From positions 12,602 through 76,601 of the forward strand of contig JAITLC010000148.1 of assembly GCA_031278095.1 (NCBI GenBank): DNA of 64,000 nt, in the 5' to 3' direction. The notes beneath the pieces are model-generated. The model ran no database searches, had not been told where the DNA came from, and saw only the letters and a program-made list of their open reading frames with translations. Source of the stretch: Treponema sp. (lineage in GTDB: Bacteria; Spirochaetota; Spirochaetia; Treponematales; Breznakiellaceae). Each line of letters opens with the position of its first letter. The stretch's first letter is position 1. The position numbers were made by a program, and so were the translations under genes. Positions 3,358-30,600 of this stretch are shown here, one piece after another.

Positions 3358-3422
3358 ATATACAGTATATCGATAAAAAGGTTCCTTGCCAATGAGGTTT
3401 CATCGTGTTAGGATTAAAAGAT

Positions 3423-4514
3423 ATGGGACCGGGGAAAGGACTTTTGTATTTTGCTCTGTTTTTTATAAGTTTTGTCATTATCTTTGCGGGCTGCCGGCCG
3501 GCGGAAAATCCGTGCAGGAACAAAGCCGGCGTTTCGTCACATCCCTATTATCTCGAAGTATCTTCCGGGCAGCGGGAGATCTTTGAGAATCTGTTCAGAC
3601 TCCTTTCGGAAAAAGACGGGGTTGGGGAAGACGTATTTGTCATTGTCCGTGAGATTGCCAATAACTATATCCGCATCAGGGAATACAGCAAGCTTATCAA
3701 CTTTCTTTCCGAAAGAACGGTCGAGTATCCTGATGATCCATACAACAGCTACTATCTTTTGACTATTGCCTACGCCTATCTCCAGCAGGAAGCCTACCCT
3801 GTAGCGGCCCGGTTCTTTGAGATAATTATAAAAAATTATCCGGATCTGACTGTCCGGGAAGAATCGATACACCTGGCCTGTCTCAACCAGCTTATCACCC
3901 TGGTAAATAATCCTGAACAGCGGGTCTGGTACTATCAGGAACTGATCTCCCGTTTCCCGGACAAGATTGACCTGGGGGTTTCCTACTTCATGCTTGCCCA
4001 GGCTTATGAATTGATAGGCGACTGGAACGGCGCCATCCAGGCCTATACCCAGTATCTGCCCTACATGGGCGCCGTGATTCCCGGTTTTCCCGATGCGGAT
4101 AACTATGCAAAGCAGTTGGTGGATTTCAACAATTCTCCCAAGGACTGGACTTTTGAAAACCTCAATGTGCTTTTGAATACGATACGTGCCGCGCTTGATT
4201 CGGGCTCCTCGGGGAGGCTCTGGCCTTACAGGGCCAAGGTAAATTTCTTTGCCCGTTCCTGGGAGCAGGAAGAAGCCGACGATTCGGGAATGGCGGAATT
4301 CAATCTTTCCGATTTTATGCGCGGAAACCGGATCTACTATGCCAAGGATCTTGCAGCCGGTTCCAATGCCAACGAGGCGTATCTGCGTACCTGGGGCTGG
4401 TCGCAGTATATCTCCGTCTGGTACTTCTACTTCCGCAAGATCTACTTTCCCCCGAATCCGGAGATTCACGGGCGCTGGGAATGGGCCGGGGTATACTACG
4501 GGGAGAAATTTTAA
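3423..4514 (+). CDS. Lipoprotein with TPR-like helical region, unknown function
   Basis: Signal peptide and lipobox (IIFAGC). The ATG at 3423 is preceded by AGGA, whereas the ORF-track start at 3405 is a GTG. The stop overlaps the next start (TAATG). Confidence 0.65.
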   Translation: MGPGKGLLYFALFFISFVIIFAGCRPAENPCRNKAGVSSHPYYLEVSSGQREIFENLFRLLSEKDGVGEDVFVIVREIANNYIRIREYSKLINFLSERTVEYPDDPYNSYYLLTIAYAYLQQEAYPVAARFFEIIIKNYPDLTVREESIHLACLNQLITLVNNPEQRVWYYQELISRFPDKIDLGVSYFMLAQAYELIGDWNGAIQAYTQYLPYMGAVIPGFPDADNYAKQLVDFNNSPKDWTFENLNVLLNTIRAALDSGSSGRLWPYRAKVNFFARSWEQEEADDSGMAEFNLSDFMRGNRIYYAKDLAAGSNANEAYLRTWGWSQYISVWYFYFRKIYFPPNPEIHGRWEWAGVYYGEKF

Positions 4515-5884
4515 TGCAGCGGGGGGAGAGTAAAAATAAAGTAAACACATATGGTGCGGCCGGTTTGACAGTGCTGCTGTTTCTGCTTGCAGTTTCGCTA
4601 ACGGCGGAAGAAACGGCAATAACGGACGGCAGTGACTCTGCACAGACAGGACTTCCGGCATCGCCTTATATACGGCCTTTGAGGGGGCAGTATTCTGCCG
4701 TGCCTGAAGAACTGAAAACATCTTACAGTTTTTTTACCTCTTCCCACTCCCTAAGTCTTTTTTATGATGAGGATAACGAACTGTATCAGCGCTATCTGAA
4801 ACAGTACACGTCCAAAGGCGGGAAGGAATGGCTTGAAGCCGTCATGAAACGCGCCGAACCCTACATCCCATTTATCCGTGAAGAAATTGAAAAAAGAGGG
4901 CTGCCCCCCGAACTGCTCTGCCTTCCGGTGGTTGAATCGGGTTACTCGGCAAAGGCCCGCAGCCGTTCGGGCGCCGTGGGGCTCTGGCAGTTCATGAAGA
5001 ACAGTATTTCTCCCTTTGATATGAAGGTGAATGAATGGGTGGACGAGAGACGGGATTTCTGGAAATCTACCGACGGAGCCCTGCGGAAACTGGAAGAAAA
5101 CTACAACTACTTTGGAGACTGGGCGCTGGCTCTGGCTGCCTACAATGCGGGCCTGGGGGCCGTAAGCCGGACGGTCAAACAGACCGGGATCGGCGACTAC
5201 TGGGAACTTTCCCGGCAGAAAAAGCTGAAGACGGAAACAATACACTATGTGCCGAAACTTTTGGCAGTGTCCCGTATACTCTTCAATCCCCGGCAGTACG
5301 GCATGGAACCTGTATGGCCCGGCAACTACCAATGGGTACGCATTCCCGTAGGACGGGCTGCAAGCCTCTCCCTCCTGGCCTCCGAAGCCGGAATGGATCA
5401 GGCTCTCCTGTTTATGGCAAACCAGGAACTTGAAACCGGCGTTACTCCCATTGATAAAAACTACCTTCTAAAGGTTCCCGCAAAAGATGCTGACAGTATC
5501 ACTGCGGTATTGGCCCGGAAGGACGTTGACCTTGTAAAGTACTACTCCCACACGATCCGTTCCGGGGACACCCTGCTGGCCCTGGCTCTCCATTACGGGG
5601 TATCGGTGAATCAGATTGAGGACATGAATCCGGGTATACAACCGAGATACCTCAGGATAGGGCGGCGGATCATAATCCCTGCGTTTAAGGAAGTGGGGCC
5701 CTACCGGCACAGGGCTGCTGCAGAGGAAAGAGCCTTTAGCGGGAATCATCTTGTCAAGAAAGGCGAATCCCTCTGGTCAATTGCGCTGGCCTACGATGTA
5801 GACCCGGAACTTTTGGCGGAAGCCAACAGTATGAGCATGGATTCCATTCTCGGGGAAGGCCGGAATCTGAAGGTACCGCAGTAA
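4514..5884 (+). CDS. Membrane-bound lytic murein transglycosylase with two LysM domains (MltD-like)
   Basis: SLT catalytic motif (VVESGYS...GAVGLWQFM, AYNAG), plus two C-terminal LysM-like repeats (HTIRSGDTLLALALHYGVSVNQIEDMNP and HLVKKGESLWSIALAYDVDPELLAEANS). The N-terminal signal/TM segment follows the ATG at 4514. Confidence 0.85.
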   Translation: MQRGESKNKVNTYGAAGLTVLLFLLAVSLTAEETAITDGSDSAQTGLPASPYIRPLRGQYSAVPEELKTSYSFFTSSHSLSLFYDEDNELYQRYLKQYTSKGGKEWLEAVMKRAEPYIPFIREEIEKRGLPPELLCLPVVESGYSAKARSRSGAVGLWQFMKNSISPFDMKVNEWVDERRDFWKSTDGALRKLEENYNYFGDWALALAAYNAGLGAVSRTVKQTGIGDYWELSRQKKLKTETIHYVPKLLAVSRILFNPRQYGMEPVWPGNYQWVRIPVGRAASLSLLASEAGMDQALLFMANQELETGVTPIDKNYLLKVPAKDADSITAVLARKDVDLVKYYSHTIRSGDTLLALALHYGVSVNQIEDMNPGIQPRYLRIGRRIIIPAFKEVGPYRHRAAAEERAFSGNHLVKKGESLWSIALAYDVDPELLAEANSMSMDSILGEGRNLKVPQ

Positions 5885-5898
5885 ATGAGGATTAAACT

Positions 5899-6801
5899 AT
5901 GAAACAGAGGAGGAGGAATTTTTTTTGGGGCAGTCTTTTTTCTCTGTGTGCCGTTCTGGTTTTTCCCCTGCCGGGAGAGGATATCGCCATAAGCGGGGGA
6001 ATTGCCTGGGAAAGTATGGAGATGAATGCAACGGTTTCCCTGAATCTGGCTTCCGCGGGACTGAAATTCCCCAACGGCAGGGTACAGGGTGAAGAACATA
6101 TCAGGGCCGCCTATCCCTCACTGATACAGTCCCTGCTTTCGGATATTCCGGTAGATTCTTCCCGGACTGTTGGAGATTTTATAAAGAGCGGCGGCTTGAG
6201 CATGGAGGCCCTTACAAATTTCGCTGCGGCGGCTTCCCTCTCTACTCCTGTCTTTTCTCCGGATCTGCTTTTACTCAGGGCCCCTTATACCCTAAAGCTT
6301 TCCGATCTGGGAGCCATGCTTCCGGGAAGCAGCCGTCCTGCAGAGATACTGCGCACCGTTGGTTCAAATCCTTCACCCGATTACACGGGCATCATCATCA
6401 TCGTTTCAAAACAGCTTCCCGCCCACGGCATGCGCAGCGCATACCTTGCCCGTCCCTGCATCTTTCCCAAAATCTGGGACACGGAAATGAATCTGATATT
6501 TGAAAAGAACATGCTCAAATCAGGACACTCAGGCCCGGTAGTCCGTTATGCAAAAGAGAGGGATATATTTCTTTCCACTCCTTCGGGCTTGAGTGAAGAA
6601 CTTGTCTCCCTGGCAGGGGAAAGGCCTCTGAGGATCATCGCACGGGAAATTTTCGGAAAGAGGCCTACAGACCCGGTTATCGACAGGGAAGACGCGCTGC
6701 TCATCACCGGGAATGAAAGAAACCGTGAACTGCTCCGGGAAGGCAAGGTAGTATTTGTGCTGGCGGATGAAGTTCTCAATGAAGCGCCTGGCGGCAATTA
6801 A
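5899..6801 (+). CDS. Secreted hypothetical protein
   Basis: 300 aa with GAGGA before the ATG and an N-terminal signal peptide (FFWGSLFSLCAVLVFPL). No motif recognised. Confidence 0.6.
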   Translation: MKQRRRNFFWGSLFSLCAVLVFPLPGEDIAISGGIAWESMEMNATVSLNLASAGLKFPNGRVQGEEHIRAAYPSLIQSLLSDIPVDSSRTVGDFIKSGGLSMEALTNFAAAASLSTPVFSPDLLLLRAPYTLKLSDLGAMLPGSSRPAEILRTVGSNPSPDYTGIIIIVSKQLPAHGMRSAYLARPCIFPKIWDTEMNLIFEKNMLKSGHSGPVVRYAKERDIFLSTPSGLSEELVSLAGERPLRIIAREIFGKRPTDPVIDREDALLITGNERNRELLREGKVVFVLADEVLNEAPGGN

Positions 6802-6828
6802 CGGCCCCGGGGACTCCAATGCCGGAAA

Positions 6829-9786
6829 ATGCCCATGGATAAAAATGAAGTCAAGATCCTGGATTTTCCATTCTTTTGCCTGAATTACAGTAATGGTGTT
6901 TTTATCCGTGCTCTTCCTCCCGGCGCAGAGGATCTGGGGGGCGGCGTGTTCCGTAATGAGGGTTCCGTGTACAGTCTGCCGGAAGGACTTGGCGCCGGCT
7001 GTCTTTCCAAAAAAGAGATTGGGGGAAAGACGCTGCTGGCCCTGGCCCGGAGGAGTCCGCACCCGCTTGTGGCAAAAGGCCCCCTCATGGCGTCTCCCGA
7101 AAAGAGGCTCATGGGGCTGGACTTGGAAATTCCCGGGGCCGGACGCAAAACTTCTGCGGGAGGAGAAAGCGCTCTTGTAATAAGAGTGCAAAGGGAAATT
7201 GTTCCGCGGAAGGACTGGCTGCCCCTGGAAGGGCTGTCCCGTTACTATCTTTATCATGATGAAATTTATGAAATAATCGATGATGAAACTCTGGATACGC
7301 TTGTTGCCGAATATGGCTCCGGCGGGAAACTGATACTCCGCGGAGAGGAGATCCCCCGCTTTGCCGATGAAAAGATGCGGCTGATCATCTGTTTCGGAGA
7401 CAGGGCCCTGAAACAAAAACTTTCAGAAGACGCACTTTTTATCAGGGCAGAGGAACTGTCGCTGGTGCTTTCGGTCAGGGGGGAGCCGGGGAAAGGAAGA
7501 AGAACAATACGGGGAATACCGATCCTGGCCTGGGGCAGGGATACGGATTGCAGGCACTACGATGCGGCGGAGGTATCCGCCGCCTGTGACAGAGACTATG
7601 TGCTTCTCGATGAAAAATGGGCCCGCCGGAAAGATCTTGAAAAAACGGGCCTCAATCCCCTCGGGCGCTATGCGGGAGGCGAACCAATTGAAGGCATCAG
7701 TATCCCTGTTCCCCTCCTCTTCCGGCGGGGAGAAGTGCCGCCTTACTTCAGCAGGCTTGAGTACCAGGGTCCTCCCTGGCTTGACAGGGCCGAAAAGGCC
7801 GCAATTTTTTTAGCCCACCTGGACTTTCTCCGTTTCTGGGGAATTTCAGGCGGGGTGATCCACTCAGGGTGCGGCAGGGCTGAACCGGCGGCTCTCTTGG
7901 CGCGATGGCTGCAGAACATGGGAACTGCGGGAAAACACGGTTCTACGGAAACATGTGCGGGAAAAATCATTGTCCTTATGGAAAGGAATTTTTGGGAACT
8001 CTATTTCAGTATTTCTGCCTCGGGCCTCCCCTCTCCCCTTGAAGGAGAGGATCTTTTAAGTTCACGGAACAAGGGTGTCTGTACCGGTTTTTATGAATCT
8101 CTGCCGCCGCCTTCCAACAGTCTTGTGAGCAGCTGCGATACCCTGATTCTGTTTGAACCGGAACATACGGCCGGGAATTACATGGAAAGACTGGGCGGCA
8201 TAGACTCAAGGATCGTGCTGGGTATCTCTCTGGAGGAACCGGGAGAAGAAACCCTGCGGCGGTTTTTTAGCGTAAAGGGAGAAAGAGCCGGGCTGGGCAG
8301 ATGGATCTACCGGAATACCGGAGCGGTCCTGTCCCTGCCCCGCTTCTACCAGGCGCCGGCAAGGGAAATTCTCCGGCCTCCGTTCGGGGGGCGTTTTACG
8401 GCAGACGCCAAATTCCGCAGTATTCCTGCCCCCGAACTCGCAGAAGAAGGCGCATTCTTTTATGCGGAAGGCACAGGGGATTATGATCCGCAAGCCTCTG
8501 TCAGAACAAAATTCGTTTTCGGGGAACTTTTGGAAAAAGAAAAGAACAATTTTTTCCGCTGGCGGTATCTCTTCAGGAACGGAATACGGAAACCTGCGGG
8601 AAGGGCCTTTATCCTCATCTATGCGAGAGAACTCTGCCTTGCCATGGGAAACATGGGGCCCTTTGAAGCCTTCGCGGAGCTGTCCCGGCTGCAGGAATAC
8701 TGCGTATGGCTGGAAAGTTTTTCAGGAAAAAGGCAGGATTTACAGGAAACGGCGGAACAGCCGCTCATCTCCCGTCTGCTTCTGCAGCGACTCTTTGATT
8801 TTAGCATCATGTACGGAATTACATCCCGGACTCTTCCGCTTGTTCTTTCAAGAGCCGCCGGAAGCGGGGATTATCTTATACAGGATCTTTTGATTCACAA
8901 AAAGTACATTGAAAAAAACAACAGTATCGCTTTTGAAGATATAAATCCTTTTATCGGCGATCTTTTGCAGGGCAACAGTTTTTATGTTTTTTACGGAAAA
9001 GAACTGGAAAAGGCCATTGAAAAAGTTATCAATCTTATCGACCACAGGCTCCGGGATCTCTGCAAAAAGCGGCTTTTTGAATTTTTTTTTCCGGTTCAGA
9101 CATACCGTGAAAGCCGCAGGGCCTTTGCGGGCATGGAAGCCGCCGGTTACTCTTCCTACACTGCCGAGTGGGCCCACTTTCTCGCATTCAAGCCGCTTCA
9201 TAAATTTATTTCTTCAGTTTTCCGTTATACCGAATACAGGCTGAAAATAAAAACAGGCTTTGAAAAACCGCGGCAGACGCCCCGCCTGGAGGAATACTGG
9301 CGTCTCATGGCCGACGCCGCTCTAAATGACACCGCCCTTCCCATGCACATAGGGCCCGGTTCCGTAAAACTGCGTCATGAATCAATCGAAAGACTCCGCT
9401 CCGAATCTGATGAGGTAAAACAGCTTTTGCTGATTGAAGAAAATCCTGTCCCGGACCGTGCGACAAAGCCTAACCATGCGCCGTCTCCGCCCGGATTGAA
9501 AAAGACTGAAAAAAAACAGCCCGGCATCAATGCTTTTATCGGTGGACTGAACGAGACGGAACGGAAAGCCCTGTTCTGCATTGCCGCTGTAAAAGATCCA
9601 TCCTCACTAAAGACTGAGCTTAAAGAGACAGCGGCCGCGGGATTCTCCATGCCGGAACTGCTTATCGACAGCATCAATGAAAAGTTCATGGATGCCTTTG
9701 GGGATCTATTGATTGAACACGGAAAAGACGGACCATGTATTACAGAAGAATACCGGGAGAGGCTGCCGCCGGCCGGAGAATCTTAA
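6829..9786 (+). CDS. TerB-N / TerB-C domain protein with long uncharacterised N-terminal extension (SngA-like)
   Basis: 985 aa. Residues from about 560 to 780 look like TerB-N (NFFRWRYLFRNG...RAFILIYARELCL). The C-terminal ~80 aa look like TerB-C (GLNETERKAL...MPELLIDSINEKFMDAFGDLLIE). It is the first gene of a tightly spaced three-gene set. Confidence 0.7.
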   Translation: MPMDKNEVKILDFPFFCLNYSNGVFIRALPPGAEDLGGGVFRNEGSVYSLPEGLGAGCLSKKEIGGKTLLALARRSPHPLVAKGPLMASPEKRLMGLDLEIPGAGRKTSAGGESALVIRVQREIVPRKDWLPLEGLSRYYLYHDEIYEIIDDETLDTLVAEYGSGGKLILRGEEIPRFADEKMRLIICFGDRALKQKLSEDALFIRAEELSLVLSVRGEPGKGRRTIRGIPILAWGRDTDCRHYDAAEVSAACDRDYVLLDEKWARRKDLEKTGLNPLGRYAGGEPIEGISIPVPLLFRRGEVPPYFSRLEYQGPPWLDRAEKAAIFLAHLDFLRFWGISGGVIHSGCGRAEPAALLARWLQNMGTAGKHGSTETCAGKIIVLMERNFWELYFSISASGLPSPLEGEDLLSSRNKGVCTGFYESLPPPSNSLVSSCDTLILFEPEHTAGNYMERLGGIDSRIVLGISLEEPGEETLRRFFSVKGERAGLGRWIYRNTGAVLSLPRFYQAPAREILRPPFGGRFTADAKFRSIPAPELAEEGAFFYAEGTGDYDPQASVRTKFVFGELLEKEKNNFFRWRYLFRNGIRKPAGRAFILIYARELCLAMGNMGPFEAFAELSRLQEYCVWLESFSGKRQDLQETAEQPLISRLLLQRLFDFSIMYGITSRTLPLVLSRAAGSGDYLIQDLLIHKKYIEKNNSIAFEDINPFIGDLLQGNSFYVFYGKELEKAIEKVINLIDHRLRDLCKKRLFEFFFPVQTYRESRRAFAGMEAAGYSSYTAEWAHFLAFKPLHKFISSVFRYTEYRLKIKTGFEKPRQTPRLEEYWRLMADAALNDTALPMHIGPGSVKLRHESIERLRSESDEVKQLLLIEENPVPDRATKPNHAPSPPGLKKTEKKQPGINAFIGGLNETERKALFCIAAVKDPSSLKTELKETAAAGFSMPELLIDSINEKFMDAFGDLLIEHGKDGPCITEEYRERLPPAGES

Positions 9787-9818
9787 CAAAGGCCCGGCAT
9801 TCAGACTATACTTAAAAC

Positions 9819-11114
9819 ATGCTCAGCTTTCCCAGACGCATAAGCTCGGCGATTCTCTCCTCCCTTTCTGCAGGGGTGGTACCCCGTGTGGGACTCGAAT
9901 ACATTGCCGTTGGACGCAAACGGGAAGTGGAAGCCAGCCTGGAGGATCTTGAAAATATTGCAGGAGGAGCCGCTGCCTTTAGAATTGTTGCGGGACGTTA
10001 CGGCAGCGGGAAAAGTTTCTTCCTCCAGGCGATCCGCAACTATGCGCTGGAACAGGGATTCATCACTGCCGATGCGGATCTTTCACCCGAGAAACGTCTT
10101 GCCGGGCCTGCAGGACTTGAAACTTACCGGGAACTCCTCCAGCGTCTTGCATCCAAGGCCCGGCCCGAAGGCGGCGCGCTGGAAGGCCTGCTGCAAAAAT
10201 GGATCAACTCGATCAAGCTTTCATTCATTCAGGACGGCTACGGGGCCAACGATCCGGATCTGCCCAAACTGGTGGAAACACGGATCTATGAAACGGTCAG
10301 CGAAATGGAAGACCTTTCCCACGGTTTTGACTTTGCGCGCGTATTAAGCGCCTACTATCTGGCCTACACAAACAGTGTTGATGAAAAAAAAGAAGCCGCC
10401 CTCCGCTGGCTCAGGGGAGAGTATGCGACGAAAACCGAAGCAAAAGCCCTGTTGGGAACCGGGGAGATCATCACCGGGGAAAACTGGTATGACTACATCA
10501 AGCTTCTTGCCGCCTTCAGTTTCCGTTCAGGCAGCAAGGGGCTGTTACTCTTTATTGATGAATGTACCCAACTGGCAAAAATCGGCAGCCGCCAGTCGCG
10601 GGAGAATAACTACGAAAAACTGCTGGCTCTCTTCAACGATGTAATGCAGGGAAAGGCTGAACGGCTGGGCATCTATCTTGCAGGTACTCCCCAGTTTATT
10701 GAAGATGACAGACGAGGACTCTTCAGCTACCAGGCTCTGAAAAGCCGTCTTGCGGAAAGCCGCTTTGCCCGTGAAGGCTACATCGATTATTCAGGCCCTG
10801 TGCTGCGGCTTTCCCAGTTGAGCCAGGAAGAGATCTATGTATTGCTGGAACGGCTCAGGGATATTCATGCCTTTCACCATGCCTATGAAAGCGAATTGGG
10901 GAACAGGGAACTTTCAATCTTCCTGGAACAGGCTTTTTCAAAAGCCGGGGCGGAAGAATTTATCACTCCCAGGGAAATTGCCAGGGATTTTCTCGGCCTT
11001 CTCAATATCACCCGCAATGAAAATTTAAACTTTGACGATCTTGTATACCGGAACGGCTACCGGGTTGAAGGCTATAAACCCGGCGGCAGCTTCTATGCCG
11101 GCTTTGAAGTATAG
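9819..11114 (+). CDS. DUF2791 / BrxD-type P-loop ATPase (SngB-like)
   Basis: 431 aa. The N-terminus (AILSSLSAGVVPRVGLEYIAVGRKREV) is typical of DUF2791. Walker A is GRYGSGKSFF and Walker B is LLLFIDEC. It starts 32 nt after the upstream gene. Confidence 0.75.
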   Translation: MLSFPRRISSAILSSLSAGVVPRVGLEYIAVGRKREVEASLEDLENIAGGAAAFRIVAGRYGSGKSFFLQAIRNYALEQGFITADADLSPEKRLAGPAGLETYRELLQRLASKARPEGGALEGLLQKWINSIKLSFIQDGYGANDPDLPKLVETRIYETVSEMEDLSHGFDFARVLSAYYLAYTNSVDEKKEAALRWLRGEYATKTEAKALLGTGEIITGENWYDYIKLLAAFSFRSGSKGLLLFIDECTQLAKIGSRQSRENNYEKLLALFNDVMQGKAERLGIYLAGTPQFIEDDRRGLFSYQALKSRLAESRFAREGYIDYSGPVLRLSQLSQEEIYVLLERLRDIHAFHHAYESELGNRELSIFLEQAFSKAGAEEFITPREIARDFLGLLNITRNENLNFDDLVYRNGYRVEGYKPGGSFYAGFEV

Positions 11115-11117
11115 GAT

Positions 11118-13295
11118 ATGAACCGGGTCTACGAACGGCTGCACCCTGTTGTACGGGAGTATATCTACAATCAGGAATGGGAAGGCCTGCGGCCTGTACA
11201 GGAAGCGGCGGCAACCGGGATCCTTGAACAGGAGAGCCACCTCATCATTGCCGCAGGCACCGCATCGGGAAAGACCGAGGCCTGTTTCTTTCCGATAATA
11301 TCACTACTGGCGGAGAAACGCCGCGATTCTGTAGGAGCCCTGTACGTAAGCCCCCTCAAGGCCCTTATCAATGATCAGTTCGGCCGTCTTGAAGGTCTGG
11401 CCCGTGAGGCGGAAATTCCTCTCTGGCGCTGGCACGGAGACATACCGGGCCGGCACAAGGAAAAGCTTTTGGAGAACCCCGCAGGGATACTGCAGATAAC
11501 GCCTGAATCTCTGGAAGCGCTGTTACTGCGGCGGCCCCGCAGGATTGCTTCTCTCTTCCGGGAACTTTCCTTTGTAGTCATTGATGAGGTACATGCCTTT
11601 ATGGGAACCGGAAGGGGGCAGCAGCTTCTCTGTCAGCTTGTCAGGATCGAGAGAACCCTGGGGAACCTTTCCTCTTCGTTTCCCAGGCGCATAGGGCTTT
11701 CCGCCACCCTGGCCGACTACCGCAGGGCAATGGAATGGATAGCAAGGGGGAGCCGGCTTGGAAGAGAGACGACCCTCATCGAAGAAAAGAAAAGCAGGCG
11801 CCGTGTACGCATTGCCCTTGACTACTTTTCCCGGAGCAAAGGTGAAGAACAGAATTACTACCAATCCCTCTACAGGGAGACCAGGGGAAAACGCTGCATA
11901 ATTTTTACCAACAGCCGTCTTGACGCGGAAGAGACAGCCGGGGCATTGAGATCCATCGATGGAGGGGAGAACCGTTTTCTTATCCACCATGGCAGTATCT
12001 CTGCCGCGCTCCGGGGAGAGGCGGAAAAGGAACTGCGCGAGGCGGCAGGGTCTGTAACACTGACAGCGACGGCAACACTTGAGATGGGGATCGATATAGG
12101 CGCCCTGGACAGGGTTATCCAGCTTGGGCCTCCCCTTTCCGTGTCGGCCTTTGTCCAGCGGCTGGGGCGTTCGGGAAGACGAAGAGGGACAAGCGAGATC
12201 TACTTCAGCAGCCTTGACGACAGTAATGATACGCTTGATATGCCCTGGACGCTGTTAAAGACCATCGCCGTGATAGAACTTTATATTAGAGAAAAATGGA
12301 TTGAGGATCGCCCGGAGCCTCCCCTGCCCTACAGCCTCCTTATCCACGAAAGCCTCTCCCTCATCGCCTCCGAAGGAGAGAAGAAGGCAGAGGTTCTGGA
12401 GGAAGAAGTCCTGAGCCTTCCCGGTTTTGAGCAGGTGAACGGAGAAGATTACCGCCGGATTCTTGAAGCCCTCATCCATGCGGGGCTTCTGGAACAGACC
12501 GCCGAAGGAACCCTGATCACCGGCCTTGAGGGGGAAAGGATCACGGGTCACTACAGTTTCTACTCGGTTTTTTCAAGCGACACCGAGTACCGGGTGATTC
12601 ACGGCGCGATGGAGATAGGAAAGGTAAACTTTGCCCCGCCGCCGGGAAGCGGCATTATTCTTGGAAGCCGCTACTGGCGGGTGCTCCGCTCGGATCAGAG
12701 GCAGAGGGAGATCGGTGTGGAGCCGGGAACCGAAGGCGCCCTGCGGCTCTGGCGGGGCGGCAGTGCGGAAAACCACCCGCGGGTTTCGGCAAAGATACTG
12801 GAGATCCTCCTCTCGCAGGAATCGTACACATATCTTTCGGCCGGCGCCGCAAAACGCCTTAGAGAAGCCAGAAACACTACGGAGAATTTTGGGTTTGACG
12901 GGAAGGGCTGGAGCCTTATCGAAACAGGCGGAGATTCACGGAGGCCTTATACCAGCTTCCGCATACTTCCGTGGCTGGGAAGCCGGGGCATGAGGACGCT
13001 GCTCCTCATCCTCCGGGATGAAGATCTGTCCATTGTTCTGGGCATTATCGCCCTCTCGCGGGAAAGCGATTACAGCATCTTTGTAAGTTCAAAACTTCCC
13101 CTTCAGATCTTCCGTGAAAACCTCTTCAGGATCATCGAAAACCTGAATTCCGCCTCTCTTGAAACTCTGGCGGAAAAATCTGTGGATACCATCCCGTGCA
13201 CGGGAAAATTCGATCCCTGGCTTCCCCCCTCCCTGCTGGCAAAGCAGTATACGGCAAACATGCTGGATCCGGAAGAATTGAAGGGGAGCGTTTAG
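11118..13295 (+). CDS. Lhr-like DEAD/DEAH-box helicase (SngC-like)
   Basis: 725 aa. Motif I is AAGTASGKTEA. It also has the TPESLE motif shared with Lhr, motif II DEVH, motif III SAT and motif VI QRLGRSGRR. It starts 3 nt after the ATPase stop. Confidence 0.85.
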   Translation: MNRVYERLHPVVREYIYNQEWEGLRPVQEAAATGILEQESHLIIAAGTASGKTEACFFPIISLLAEKRRDSVGALYVSPLKALINDQFGRLEGLAREAEIPLWRWHGDIPGRHKEKLLENPAGILQITPESLEALLLRRPRRIASLFRELSFVVIDEVHAFMGTGRGQQLLCQLVRIERTLGNLSSSFPRRIGLSATLADYRRAMEWIARGSRLGRETTLIEEKKSRRRVRIALDYFSRSKGEEQNYYQSLYRETRGKRCIIFTNSRLDAEETAGALRSIDGGENRFLIHHGSISAALRGEAEKELREAAGSVTLTATATLEMGIDIGALDRVIQLGPPLSVSAFVQRLGRSGRRRGTSEIYFSSLDDSNDTLDMPWTLLKTIAVIELYIREKWIEDRPEPPLPYSLLIHESLSLIASEGEKKAEVLEEEVLSLPGFEQVNGEDYRRILEALIHAGLLEQTAEGTLITGLEGERITGHYSFYSVFSSDTEYRVIHGAMEIGKVNFAPPPGSGIILGSRYWRVLRSDQRQREIGVEPGTEGALRLWRGGSAENHPRVSAKILEILLSQESYTYLSAGAAKRLREARNTTENFGFDGKGWSLIETGGDSRRPYTSFRILPWLGSRGMRTLLLILRDEDLSIVLGIIALSRESDYSIFVSSKLPLQIFRENLFRIIENLNSASLETLAEKSVDTIPCTGKFDPWLPPSLLAKQYTANMLDPEELKGSV

Positions 13296-27645: not shown

Positions 27646-30600
27646 TCGATACATGGTTCAAAGAAACATACGGCGACCCTACTGCCGTACAGGCTGAGGC
27701 ATGGCCGCTCATTGAAAAGGGAGAAAATGTACTTGCACTGGCTCCTACCGGCAGCGGTAAAACTCTCACCGCATTTCTCGGCGTCCTCTCCCGTTTCTGT
27801 AACGGAGATTACGATCCTGAGGAGTTGACAGTCCTCTATGTGTCTCCGCTCAAGGCCTTGAATGAAGACATCAAACGGAATCTTCTTGAACCTCTGGAGG
27901 CTCTCTGTAAACGCTTTACGGATAGGGGCATTGAGTTTCCTCCCATACGGGTTGAAACAAGATCCGGAGACACTCCGCAATCTGAACGCCGCCGGTTTAT
28001 AAAAAGTCCCCCTTCCATTCTGGCTCTTACCCCGGAGAGTCTTGCAATTCTTTTGAACAACGGCAAGGGGAGAATCATCCTCTCCACCGTAAAGCTTGTT
28101 ATCATTGACGAGATTCATGCGGTTCTGGGCAGTAAACGGGGAAGCTTTCTTTCATGCCAGATAGACCGGCTCTCCCTCATTGCGGGCAACTTTCAGCGCA
28201 TCAGTCTTTCCGCTACGGTGAGGCCTCCTGAAGCCGCTGCGGAATTTTCAGGCAGCGGCAAATACAGGGTGCACATTGTCTCTCCCCCTGCGAATAAAAA
28301 AATCGATTTCCGGGTAGAGTTTCCCGAAACGGGTTTCAATCAAGGTTTCAATACGAAGGCCGAAGAAAAATATGATAGCCGTTACAGGGCCGCTGCGGAT
28401 TATATCCTTGAGCGTCTCGATCTTCAAAAACAAATTTCTGTGCAGGGGGAAGGAAAAGGCCGCACTTCACTCCTGGTATTTACCGATTCGCGAAGACAGG
28501 CGGAACGTCTCTGTCTTTTCATAAACCGGGAAGCGGAAAGCTTTTTTGAAAAGAAAAATTTGCCGGCAAGACAGATTGCCTATACCCACCATGGATCACT
28601 TTCAAAAGAGATCCGCCGCGCCGTGGAACACGGTTTTGCCGCCGGAGAGATCCCCTGTGTTGTTGCCACCGCATCTCTGGAACTGGGAATCGATATTGGT
28701 ACCGTGGAAGAAGTGATCCTTGCAGGTACTCCCCGCTCGGTCTCTTCATGCATGCAGAGGATAGGACGCTCGGGACACGGGGTGGGCAGGGTAAGCCGCG
28801 GCAGGCTTATCCCTTTACATACAATAGATCTACTTAATGCCGCCACACTTGAAAGAGCCTTTGAGGAAACAAATATTGAGGAAACCTACCCTCTAAAGAA
28901 TCCTCTGGATGTACTGTCACAGCTCATACTGTCTCTCTGCGCGGAACATGATAGAAATGTTGATGAACTCTTTAAAAGTATAAAAAATTTCTATGTGTTT
29001 AATACGCTCACGCGAAGCAGCTATGATAGGGTGATCAAAATGCTCTCCGGCGGATACCGGATCCGGGATTTCAAAGCAAGGCTTTACTTCGACAAAAAAA
29101 GCGGGGAGTTACGGGCGGCGCCCGGCACGCTCCAACTCCTCTACCAGTCGGGAGGTGTCATTGCCAGCCGCGGACTTTATGCCCTGCGTCTGGCAGGAAG
29201 AGAAGGCGGAAAGCCGGGAACAAAAATCGGCGAGCTGGATGAAGAATTTGTCTGGGAAAAAAGACTCGGTGATACATTCGATTTTGGCGGAAGATCCTGG
29301 CGCATACACACAATTTCAAGTGAAGCGGTTGAGGTACTGCCCTGTGAAAAGATTTCGGGCTTTACTCCCTTCTGGCGGGCCGACGCCATGTTCAGTTCTT
29401 CCATGATTACAAAATACAAACTGCAGCTTCTCGATTATCTTACCGCAGGCAATACCCTGCCCGAAGAGCCTTATGGAAAACTCAATCTGTTGCTTGCGGA
29501 ACAGAGAAACATTCAGGGAGGTCTTGGCGGAAGCGATTCGATTGCGGTTGAGGTTATTGACGATCCCCTGGAACGTAAAGATGCGCTGAGGATCGTCATT
29601 CACAGTTTCAGGGGCGGAAGAATTAACTATCCATTGTCGCTTGCCCTGGTTGAGGATCTGGAAGAAAAACTTGCGCGGCGGTGCGAAAGTTTCTGTGACG
29701 ATAACGGTATACTCCTTCTCATCCCCCGGCAGGAAAATAGTCCGGCCGGAATAGAAACTCTTGTCCGCGACAGTATCATGTCAATGGATCATCTCGAACA
29801 GAACTTAATGCGTGGTGAAAGACTCTTCAGAAAGAGGCTTGAGTCTTCAGGCGTTTTCGGCGCCGCATTCCGGGAGGCTGCGGAACGGAGTCTGCTTCTG
29901 CCGCGTTCCGGTTTCGGAAGGCGTACTCCGCTCTGGGTTATGAGGCAGCGTTCAAAACGCCTTTTCGATGAGGCCTGCGGTATCAAGGATTTCCCCCTTA
30001 CCGCCGAGGCATGGCGGACCTGTCTGCAGGACAACTTTGACATGGAAGGCTTCAGGGATCTTATCACTTCACTTTGCAGTGGAAACACCGGCATTTCCTT
30101 TTTTAAATCCGGACGGCCCAGCCCCTTTGCCCGTTCCCTTGCCTGGCAGGAAACTGGCACACTTATCTATGAGTATGATGACAGGCCGGAACTACACAGC
30201 GCCGCAAAGGGCAGCGGTTCAGGGAAAGGCGGACTTTCGCCTTCCCTTTCGGACAGGGTAATTGATGAAGCTCTGGGAGACGCTTCCCTAAGGCCTATGC
30301 TCCCCGAAGCTGTAGTTGAAAATTTTATCTCCCGTCTCCGCAGGGAAAGGGAAGGGTGGACGCCTGAAGACGAAACATCTCTTGCGGAATGGATCAAGGA
30401 AAGGGTTATCATTCCCTGTGACGAATGGGAAAAGCTCTGCGGTTTTCTTCCCCGGCAATTAAAGGAAACTCTGGATAGAGATCCTTCACTGGGCGGAAAG
30501 ATTGTAACCGTAAAACGAAATGATTTAGCCGTTCCCTGCGTGATCCACCGGGAACTGCGCGGTGAATGGGAACACGATCCCCTGCCGCTGGTAACATCGG

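Follow-up and report, generated by a model that had tools for sequence, protein, structure and literature searches.

A probable catalytically dead SNF2-like lobe in the N-terminal extension of the Shango protein SngA from Treponema

The 64,000-nucleotide (nt) stretch of Treponema sp. DNA studied here (contig JAITLC010000148.1, positions 12,602 to 76,601; hereafter "the window") carries a Shango defense cassette whose first gene, sngA, encodes a protein of unusual length. The 528-position profile that describes SngA covers only the last 436 amino acids (aa) of this protein. What, then, is the long segment in front of them, and what does it do for the system? An earlier note, made from the sequence alone, had proposed that a degenerate SNF2-type ATPase lobe lies there. 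The interpretation preferred here, to which a probability of about 0.7 was assigned, is that the N-terminal ~520 aa constitute a three-part module (Modules A, B and C; Table 1) in which Module C is a catalytically dead SNF2-like lobe 1, retained as a non-enzymatic dock.

Extent and fold of the extension

The PADLOC SngA model matched the protein with E = 1.2e-38, and aa 544-979 were aligned to profile positions 89-523 of 528. Because the match is limited to these residues, the segment from aa 1 to ca. 520-545 was taken as the extension; the earlier estimate, in which the TerB modules occupied only the last ~430 aa behind an extension of ~560 aa, is in good agreement with these limits. Pfam TerB_C (PF15615) was located at aa 845-979 (4.6e-17). 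No Pfam match to TerB_N (PF13208) was obtained in this SngA; homologues aligned to its TerB region have PF13208. TerB-N and TerB-C are said to have been defined by Anantharaman, Iyer and Aravind in 2012. For the extension itself, Pfam at E <= 10 (aa 1-560 and its halves) yielded no match, neither to SNF2-rel_dom nor to DUF3670/PF12419. Searches of NCBIfam and of the PDB sequence set (phmmer, and hmmsearch with a 16-sequence profile) returned nothing usable, apart from noise such as glutamate dehydrogenase at E = 0.27.

AlphaFold was used to model the full-length protein (16-sequence alignment; predicted local distance difference test score [pLDDT] 71.5, predicted template-modeling score [pTM] 0.38) and aa 1-560 (69-sequence alignment; pLDDT 87.1, pTM 0.77). 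Both models divide into the same three parts: aa 1-165, rich in beta strands; aa 166-315, of mixed composition; and aa 320-500, in which helices and strands alternate. The last of these, Module C, comprises helices (H) and strands (E) in the order H323-337, E341-344, H351-370, E380-384, H386-396, E417-421, E434-442, H444-456, E458-467 and H473-493. When the aa 1-560 model was compared to the PDB using Foldseek, ranks 1-6 were occupied by SNF2 remodelers: Chd1 7tn2_W (1.6e-5), 9n6h, 3mwy, ISWI 5jxr, Chd1 9gd1, and SNF2h 8v7l_W, the last over 221 aligned columns with a root-mean-square deviation (rmsd) of 5.9 and a prob of 1.00. SNF2 proteins accounted for 17 of the top 30 matches, with Mot1, BAF, Isw1, SRCAP, SsoRad54, INO80, SWR1, SWI/SNF and EP400 further down; the rest of the 30 were XPB, RecD, Dna2 and nsp13 helicases. 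The outcome with the full-length model was the same, and the matches in the viral structure library (BFVD) were helicases only. A structure model searched in Foldseek for a RecA-like or SNF2 fold was one of the checks that the earlier note had named, and its expectation was borne out, with helicases dominating and SNF2 remodelers at the top.

Profile-profile comparisons were carried out in HHalign against 30 SWIM-DUF3670-SNF2 proteins of Spirochaetota, one of which, of 1154 aa, is encoded in the same genome, and 60 column shuffles served as the control. Comparison of aa 315-505 to SNF2 lobe 1 gave a score of 39.3 (P = 1.8e-5), about 10 standard deviations (SD) above the shuffles (13.5 ± 2.5). 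Against SNF2 lobe 2, the same residues scored 13.6, a null result (shuffles, 13.2 ± 2.2). The register that had been proposed for SNF2 motifs I, Ia and II was reproduced at aa 330-470, and two blocks were added to it, Ic (FYE vs. TSY) and III (LGIF vs. LTGTP). In this register, SngA HLEFLRxWGxSGGVI is paired with SNF2 WL.fL...GGILAD, LVLMEK.FY.E with LIV.P.Sl..NW..E (Ia), G.i.FYE.L with D.vITSY..l (Ic), DILILVEPE with f..iILDEAQ (II), and ArLrLGIF with a..RlaLTGTP (III). The spacing of the blocks from the GG pair agrees with that in the 1154-aa SNF2 protein once a 7-aa insert, limited to the closest clade, is discounted. Lobe 2 is absent from SngA: there is no Helicase_C Pfam match, and HHalign comparison of aa 480-985 to lobe 2 (P = 0.065) led to the rejection of a copy hidden in that segment. 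After aa 530, the full-length model contains helices only.

Upstream of the lobe, aa 150-315 were compared to the DUF3670 region of the same 30 proteins, with a score of 20.3 (P = 0.012) over 104 collinear columns; the shuffles scored 9.4 ± 1.3, and the real score was 8 SD higher. This alignment and that of the lobe are collinear (offsets 377 and 375), and PF12419 sits at the aligned place in the 1154-aa protein, directly upstream of lobe 1. The resemblance of aa ~166-300 to DUF3670, the domain preceding bacterial SNF2 cores, is suggestive only. Module A had no Pfam, NCBIfam or PDB sequence match and no HHalign match to full SNF2 proteins. Thus, of the ~250 N-terminal residues once likened to the region that precedes SNF2 cores, the part from aa ~166 retains that likeness, if weakly, and aa 1-165 match nothing. 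The extension probably derives from the DUF3670 and lobe-1 portions of bacterial SNF2 proteins.

Module C was assigned as a RecA-like lobe 1 of the superfamily 2 (SF2) helicases, closest to SNF2; the choice of SNF2 over a generic SF2 origin is favored but not proven. Module C could be a dead helicase-type RecA lobe from another lineage of SF2 or superfamily 1 (XPB-, RecD- or type III Res-like), or too diverged to assign, with its SNF2-like blocks being generic features of lobe 1. XPB (2fwr_A, 3.8e-4), RecD (5ld2_D, 6.4e-4), Dna2 and nsp13 do appear in the PDB top 20, the viral library is headed by A18-like, Res-like and nidovirus helicases, and a DEAD-box profile (17 proteins, no shuffles) aligned to aa 315-505 in a register identical to that of SNF2 (P = 0.023). 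However, the DEAD-box score was 22.6, compared to 39.3 for SNF2, and the six leading PDB ranks and over half of the top 30 belong to SNF2. The SNF2-typical blocks are also present (GG before strand 1 as well as the Ic and III pairings), and the domain immediately before the lobe is DUF3670-like, as in bacterial SNF2 proteins. A non-SNF2 lineage was consequently regarded as unlikely.

Conserved blocks and lost catalytic residues

All of the segments quoted in the earlier note were located in the protein (Table 1), and they coincide with conserved blocks of the family alignment of 69 sequences. In this alignment, L334 and G341 do not vary, and H330, F333, G338, G342, L464, G465, R495 and P504 are conserved at >=90%. 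The most conserved block, HLDFLRFWGISGGVI, contains H330 (68/69), L334 (69/69), G338 (68/69), G341 (69/69) and G342 (67/69). Conservation in the motif II-like block is lower for D437 (60/69), E443 (45/69), P444 (46/69) and E445 (37/69).

The catalytic residues did not share in this conservation. A Walker A GK[T/S] occurs in 0/69 homologues, so the loss of the Walker A Lys/Thr that had been pointed out in this protein extends to the whole family; the P-loop position is occupied by a loop that varies among them and that in most is two residues shorter. The identification of CDTLILFEPEH as a decayed motif II also stood, HHalign having placed it on SNF2 motif II; the DExH position reads E-P-E-(H/E), which is not a DExH box. 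Module C therefore has the fold of a RecA-like lobe 1 and the block order and spacing of SNF2, and it lacks the Pfam profile match, the Walker A motif, the DExH box and lobe 2. These four deficits exclude the extension from the SNF2 ATPase family. With the Walker A loop and the DExH acid pair lost and lobe 2 absent, Module C cannot, as read from its residues, be an ATPase or a translocase.

Two groups of SNF2 proteins offer comparisons. In the bacterial SWIM-DUF3670-SNF2 ATPases (PF04434 + PF12419 + PF00176 + PF00271), the domain order is the same (lobe 1 comes after a DUF3670-like domain), and the order and spacing of the lobe-1 blocks in, for example, the 1154-aa protein are those of SngA. 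In contrast to these ATPases, the SngA module is without the SWIM finger, Walker A, DExH, lobe 2 and Pfam-level similarity, and its fusion partner is TerB-N/TerB-C. Structurally, the model came closest to lobe 1 of eukaryotic and archaeal SNF2 proteins (Chd1 7tn2/3mwy, ISWI 5jxr, SNF2h 8v7l, SsoRad54 1z63); relative to these remodelers, the identity is 6-16%, the rmsd is 5-7 Å, only one lobe is present, and the catalytic residues are missing in SngA.

Table 1. Features of the Shango cassette and of the SngA protein (nt positions are those of the window)
Feature	Residues (aa)	Position (nt)	Strand	Basis or remark
sngA, long form (N-terminal extension + TerB-N/TerB-C region)	985 aa	6829-9786	+	ORF list, PADLOC, Pfam
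Module A, beta-rich	1-165	6829-7323	+	AlphaFold model; strands 16-49 and 81-148, pLDDT mostly >90
Module B, DUF3670-like (SNF2-helicase-associated-like)	166-315	7324-7773	+	HHalign
Module C, probable catalytically dead SF2/SNF2-like RecA lobe 1	316-505	7774-8343	+	beta-alpha-beta topology in both models, Foldseek, HHalign
AAIFLAHLDFLRFWGISGGVIHSGCGRAEPAALLARWL	324-361	7798-7911	+	segment quoted in the earlier note
HLDFLRFWGISGGVI, most conserved block, = SNF2 WL....GGILAD (helix + strand 1)	330-344	7816-7860	+	HHalign register
HSGCGRAEP, P-loop remnant, Walker A lost	345-353	7861-7887	+	69-sequence alignment
GKIIVLMERNFWELY, motif Ia-like strand + helix	378-392	7960-8004	+	aligned to sLIV.P.Slv.NW..E; quoted in the earlier note
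VCTGFYESL, motif Ic-like (SNF2 ITSYe.l)	417-425	8077-8103	+	F421 50/68, Y422 56/68, E423 43/68
CDTLILFEPEH, decayed motif II (Walker B/DExH position = E-P-E)	436-446	8134-8166	+	aligned to f..iILDEAQ; quoted in the earlier note
SRIVLGISL, motif III-like (SNF2 RlaLTGTP)	460-468	8206-8232	+	L464 63/69, G465 64/69
Low-confidence linker	506-545	8344-8463	+	pLDDT about 50-58 (aa 1-560 model); <50 at aa 501-518 (full-length model)
TerB-N/TerB-C region, canonical SngA body	546-985	8464-9786	+	PADLOC SngA, Pfam TerB_C
sngB, BrxC/BrxD-type ATPase		9819-11114	+	Pfam BrxC_BrxD 2e-144; PADLOC SngB 8.4e-159
sngC, DEAD/DEAH helicase (BrxHI-like)		11118-13295	+	PADLOC SngC 2.7e-201; Pfam DEAD + Helicase_C

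Distribution, selection and genomic setting

A word-index search with aa 1-560 identified 15 relatives, all from Treponema or Spirochaetia and about 900-1100 aa long. When 1.84 billion cluster representatives were searched exhaustively by phmmer, 82 clusters (50% identity) were returned. A word-index search with the TerB half yielded 13 matches, an insufficient number for a length distribution of SngA proteins. The distant forms that were tested (1100-1250 aa) all feature TerB_N and TerB_C behind a ~600-650-aa extension, and none had an SNF2 Pfam match. One distant long form is from Acidobacteriota, and weaker relatives were found in metagenome-assembled genomes (MAGs) of Thermodesulfobiota and Coprothermobacterota. 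Among 401 Spirochaetota genomes, seven have SngA, with frames of 515-754 aa except for this one (994). The long form is, by these predicted proteins, atypical but recurrent across several phyla; the earlier description of an atypical variant of the system is apt with regard to its length among Spirochaetota SngA proteins and must be qualified by this recurrence. A gene fusion or assembly artifact was rejected, as the architecture recurs in many independent contigs and MAGs and in several phyla. In the 1100-1250-aa forms from other phyla, Module A is itself preceded by an additional N-terminal domain of ~100 aa, and no SWIM-type Cys/His pattern was seen in those extra residues. One distant long form lies in a TerB / BrxC_BrxD / DEAD operon; that operon adjoins a tyrosine integrase and an IS66-like fragment, a mobile context unlike that of the Treponema cassette.

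The coverage patterns of the homologues indicate three separable modules: some proteins are without aa ~310-520, and others begin at aa ~205-270. Of the three, Module B is matched in the largest number of homologues, and Module A is missing from those of about 750-850 aa. Of the SngA homologues of about 720-850 aa, some keep Modules A and B without the dead lobe, and others start at Module B.

Selection was assessed as the ratio of nonsynonymous to synonymous substitution rates (dN/dS; Nei-Gojobori) among five close Treponema genomes (10 pairs, mean dS ~0.2). The ratio was 0.36 for Module A, 0.20 for Module B, 0.29 for Module C, 0.29 for the TerB-N region and 0.34 for the TerB-C region. These estimates show the extension to be under purifying selection, like the other parts of SngA. 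For the whole of SngA the ratio was 0.30, compared to 0.09 for SngB and 0.21 for SngC.

All three PADLOC models matched strongly, and the predicted genes at 6829-13295 are a complete Shango cassette. The genes are co-directional, with intergenic gaps of 32 and 3 nt. The gene order at 3405-13295 of the window (lipoprotein, MltD-like SLT/LysM transglycosylase, secreted protein, SngA, SngB, SngC) is kept from the lipoprotein to SngC in every relative among the Treponema MAGs with enough flanking DNA. At equal divergence, the identities are 32-38% for SngA, 63-70% for SngB, 52-56% for SngC and 67-71% for the lipoprotein. Because the run is syntenic at SngA identities down to 32%, the cassette was considered to occupy a fixed chromosomal site rather than a mobile island. 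Such a pattern resembles that of vertical inheritance at that site with a fast-evolving first component, and the fast divergence of SngA would fit a target-facing role. Directly upstream of sngA, at 5899-6801, lies a gene for a 300-aa protein with a signal-peptide-like N-terminus; no family was assigned to it from Pfam or NCBIfam, and relatives have it in the same place with identities of 45-90%. Elsewhere in the window, a 1503-aa open frame, a putative large helicase, has a second DEAD-family match (PF00270, E = 2.9e-30) at about 27681-28223.

The operon is that of Shango (SngABC) in E. coli and Pseudomonas aeruginosa PA14, i.e. a TerB-N/TerB-C protein, a BrxD-like ATPase and a DEAD/DEAH helicase (Millman et al. 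2022, bioRxiv 10.1101/2022.05.11.491447; Johnson et al. 2023, PMC10250203). It differs in that Modules A and B and the SNF2-like lobe are added to SngA and in that the cassette is located beside envelope genes at its fixed site in the Treponema MAGs rather than on a mobile island. A dyad of motors shared with BREX is formed by SngB, which matches BrxD (3.5e-48), and SngC, which matches BrxHI (1.5e-123). Unlike BREX, this locus has no BREX core genes, and the specific partner of the dyad is SngA. The extension is a previously undescribed variant of the known Shango system. No description of a dead lobe in SngA was found in the literature examined, in which SngA is presented only as a TerB protein; Anantharaman, Iyer and Aravind 2012 might mention one.

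Possible roles of the dead lobe

A non-enzymatic docking role for the module is inferred because basic positions are conserved (R335, K/R379, K/R386 and R495) and because conservation is clustered at the former cleft; the basic positions lie on the former tracking-strand surface. Two arrangements can be envisioned. In the first, the module would keep the TerB-N/TerB-C scaffold attached to double-stranded DNA via the former DNA-tracking surface. In the second, it would bind the SngC helicase or the SngB ATPase via the conserved face of the former cleft. With either arrangement, this Shango variant would be coupled to DNA and not to the membrane alone.

Several observations weigh against the reading of the extension as a dead SNF2-like dock. 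The Pfam, NCBIfam and PDB sequence searches all leave the extension unnamed. The Foldseek E-values are modest (1e-5 to 1e-3), the TM-scores are 0.2-0.26 when normalized to 560 aa, and the results, which come without residue ranges, bear on the fold and not on the register. In fold space, XPB, RecD and nsp13 score nearly as high as SNF2. The HHalign probability was 20-42%, obtained without a secondary-structure term and with a one-template database, and the link to DUF3670 is weak. Some homologues have Modules A and B and the TerB region without Module C, so that a subset of SngA proteins, at least, can do without the lobe. Finally, binding of DNA or of a partner by the module is only inferred.

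Other roles were also weighed. The dead half-motor might be a sensor: either a decoy bound by phage anti-helicase or DNA-mimic proteins, or a lobe acting in trans that, paired with SngC on phage DNA, switches SngB/SngC on. This idea is speculative, and we would expect it to prove wrong. If it were true, Shango would be a system of DNA surveillance, not of membrane surveillance as proposed in the literature. It is improbable that the lobe binds nucleotide or another small ligand via non-canonical residues, making it a ligand-gated switch instead of a passive dock. Conserved residues (G338, G341 and G342 at the end of strand 1, E443-P444-E445 and L464-G465) surround what was the nucleotide pocket, and this SngA has G-C-G-R-A at the P-loop position; however, the strand 1-helix 1 loop varies in sequence and length across the family, the GxGR version is confined to the closest Treponema clade, and the lobe 2 that would provide an arginine finger is absent. 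That the SNF2 resemblance is a modeling or alignment artifact, and the extension an unrelated new fold, is very improbable: there is no sequence-library match and each single test is statistically marginal, but the same segment and register emerged from three lines, namely two AlphaFold models of different alignment depth, Foldseek with two libraries, and profile-profile comparison with shuffle and lobe-2 controls.

The retention of a dead SNF2-like lobe 1 as a dock thus remains the preferred account of the extension, and it bears on how Shango is viewed. The system has been experimentally validated; for its TerB domain, the published proposal, which derives from the name TerB, is of a possible membrane-surveillance role only (Millman et al. 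2022; Johnson et al. 2023, PMC10250203). A dead SNF2 lobe and a DUF3670-like domain would point to DNA or the system's own helicase as the contact of SngA, and H330, R335, G341/G342 and R495 are candidate residues for mutation. The extension would also be one more case in which a pseudo-enzyme helicase lobe has been reused as a scaffold in bacterial immunity.

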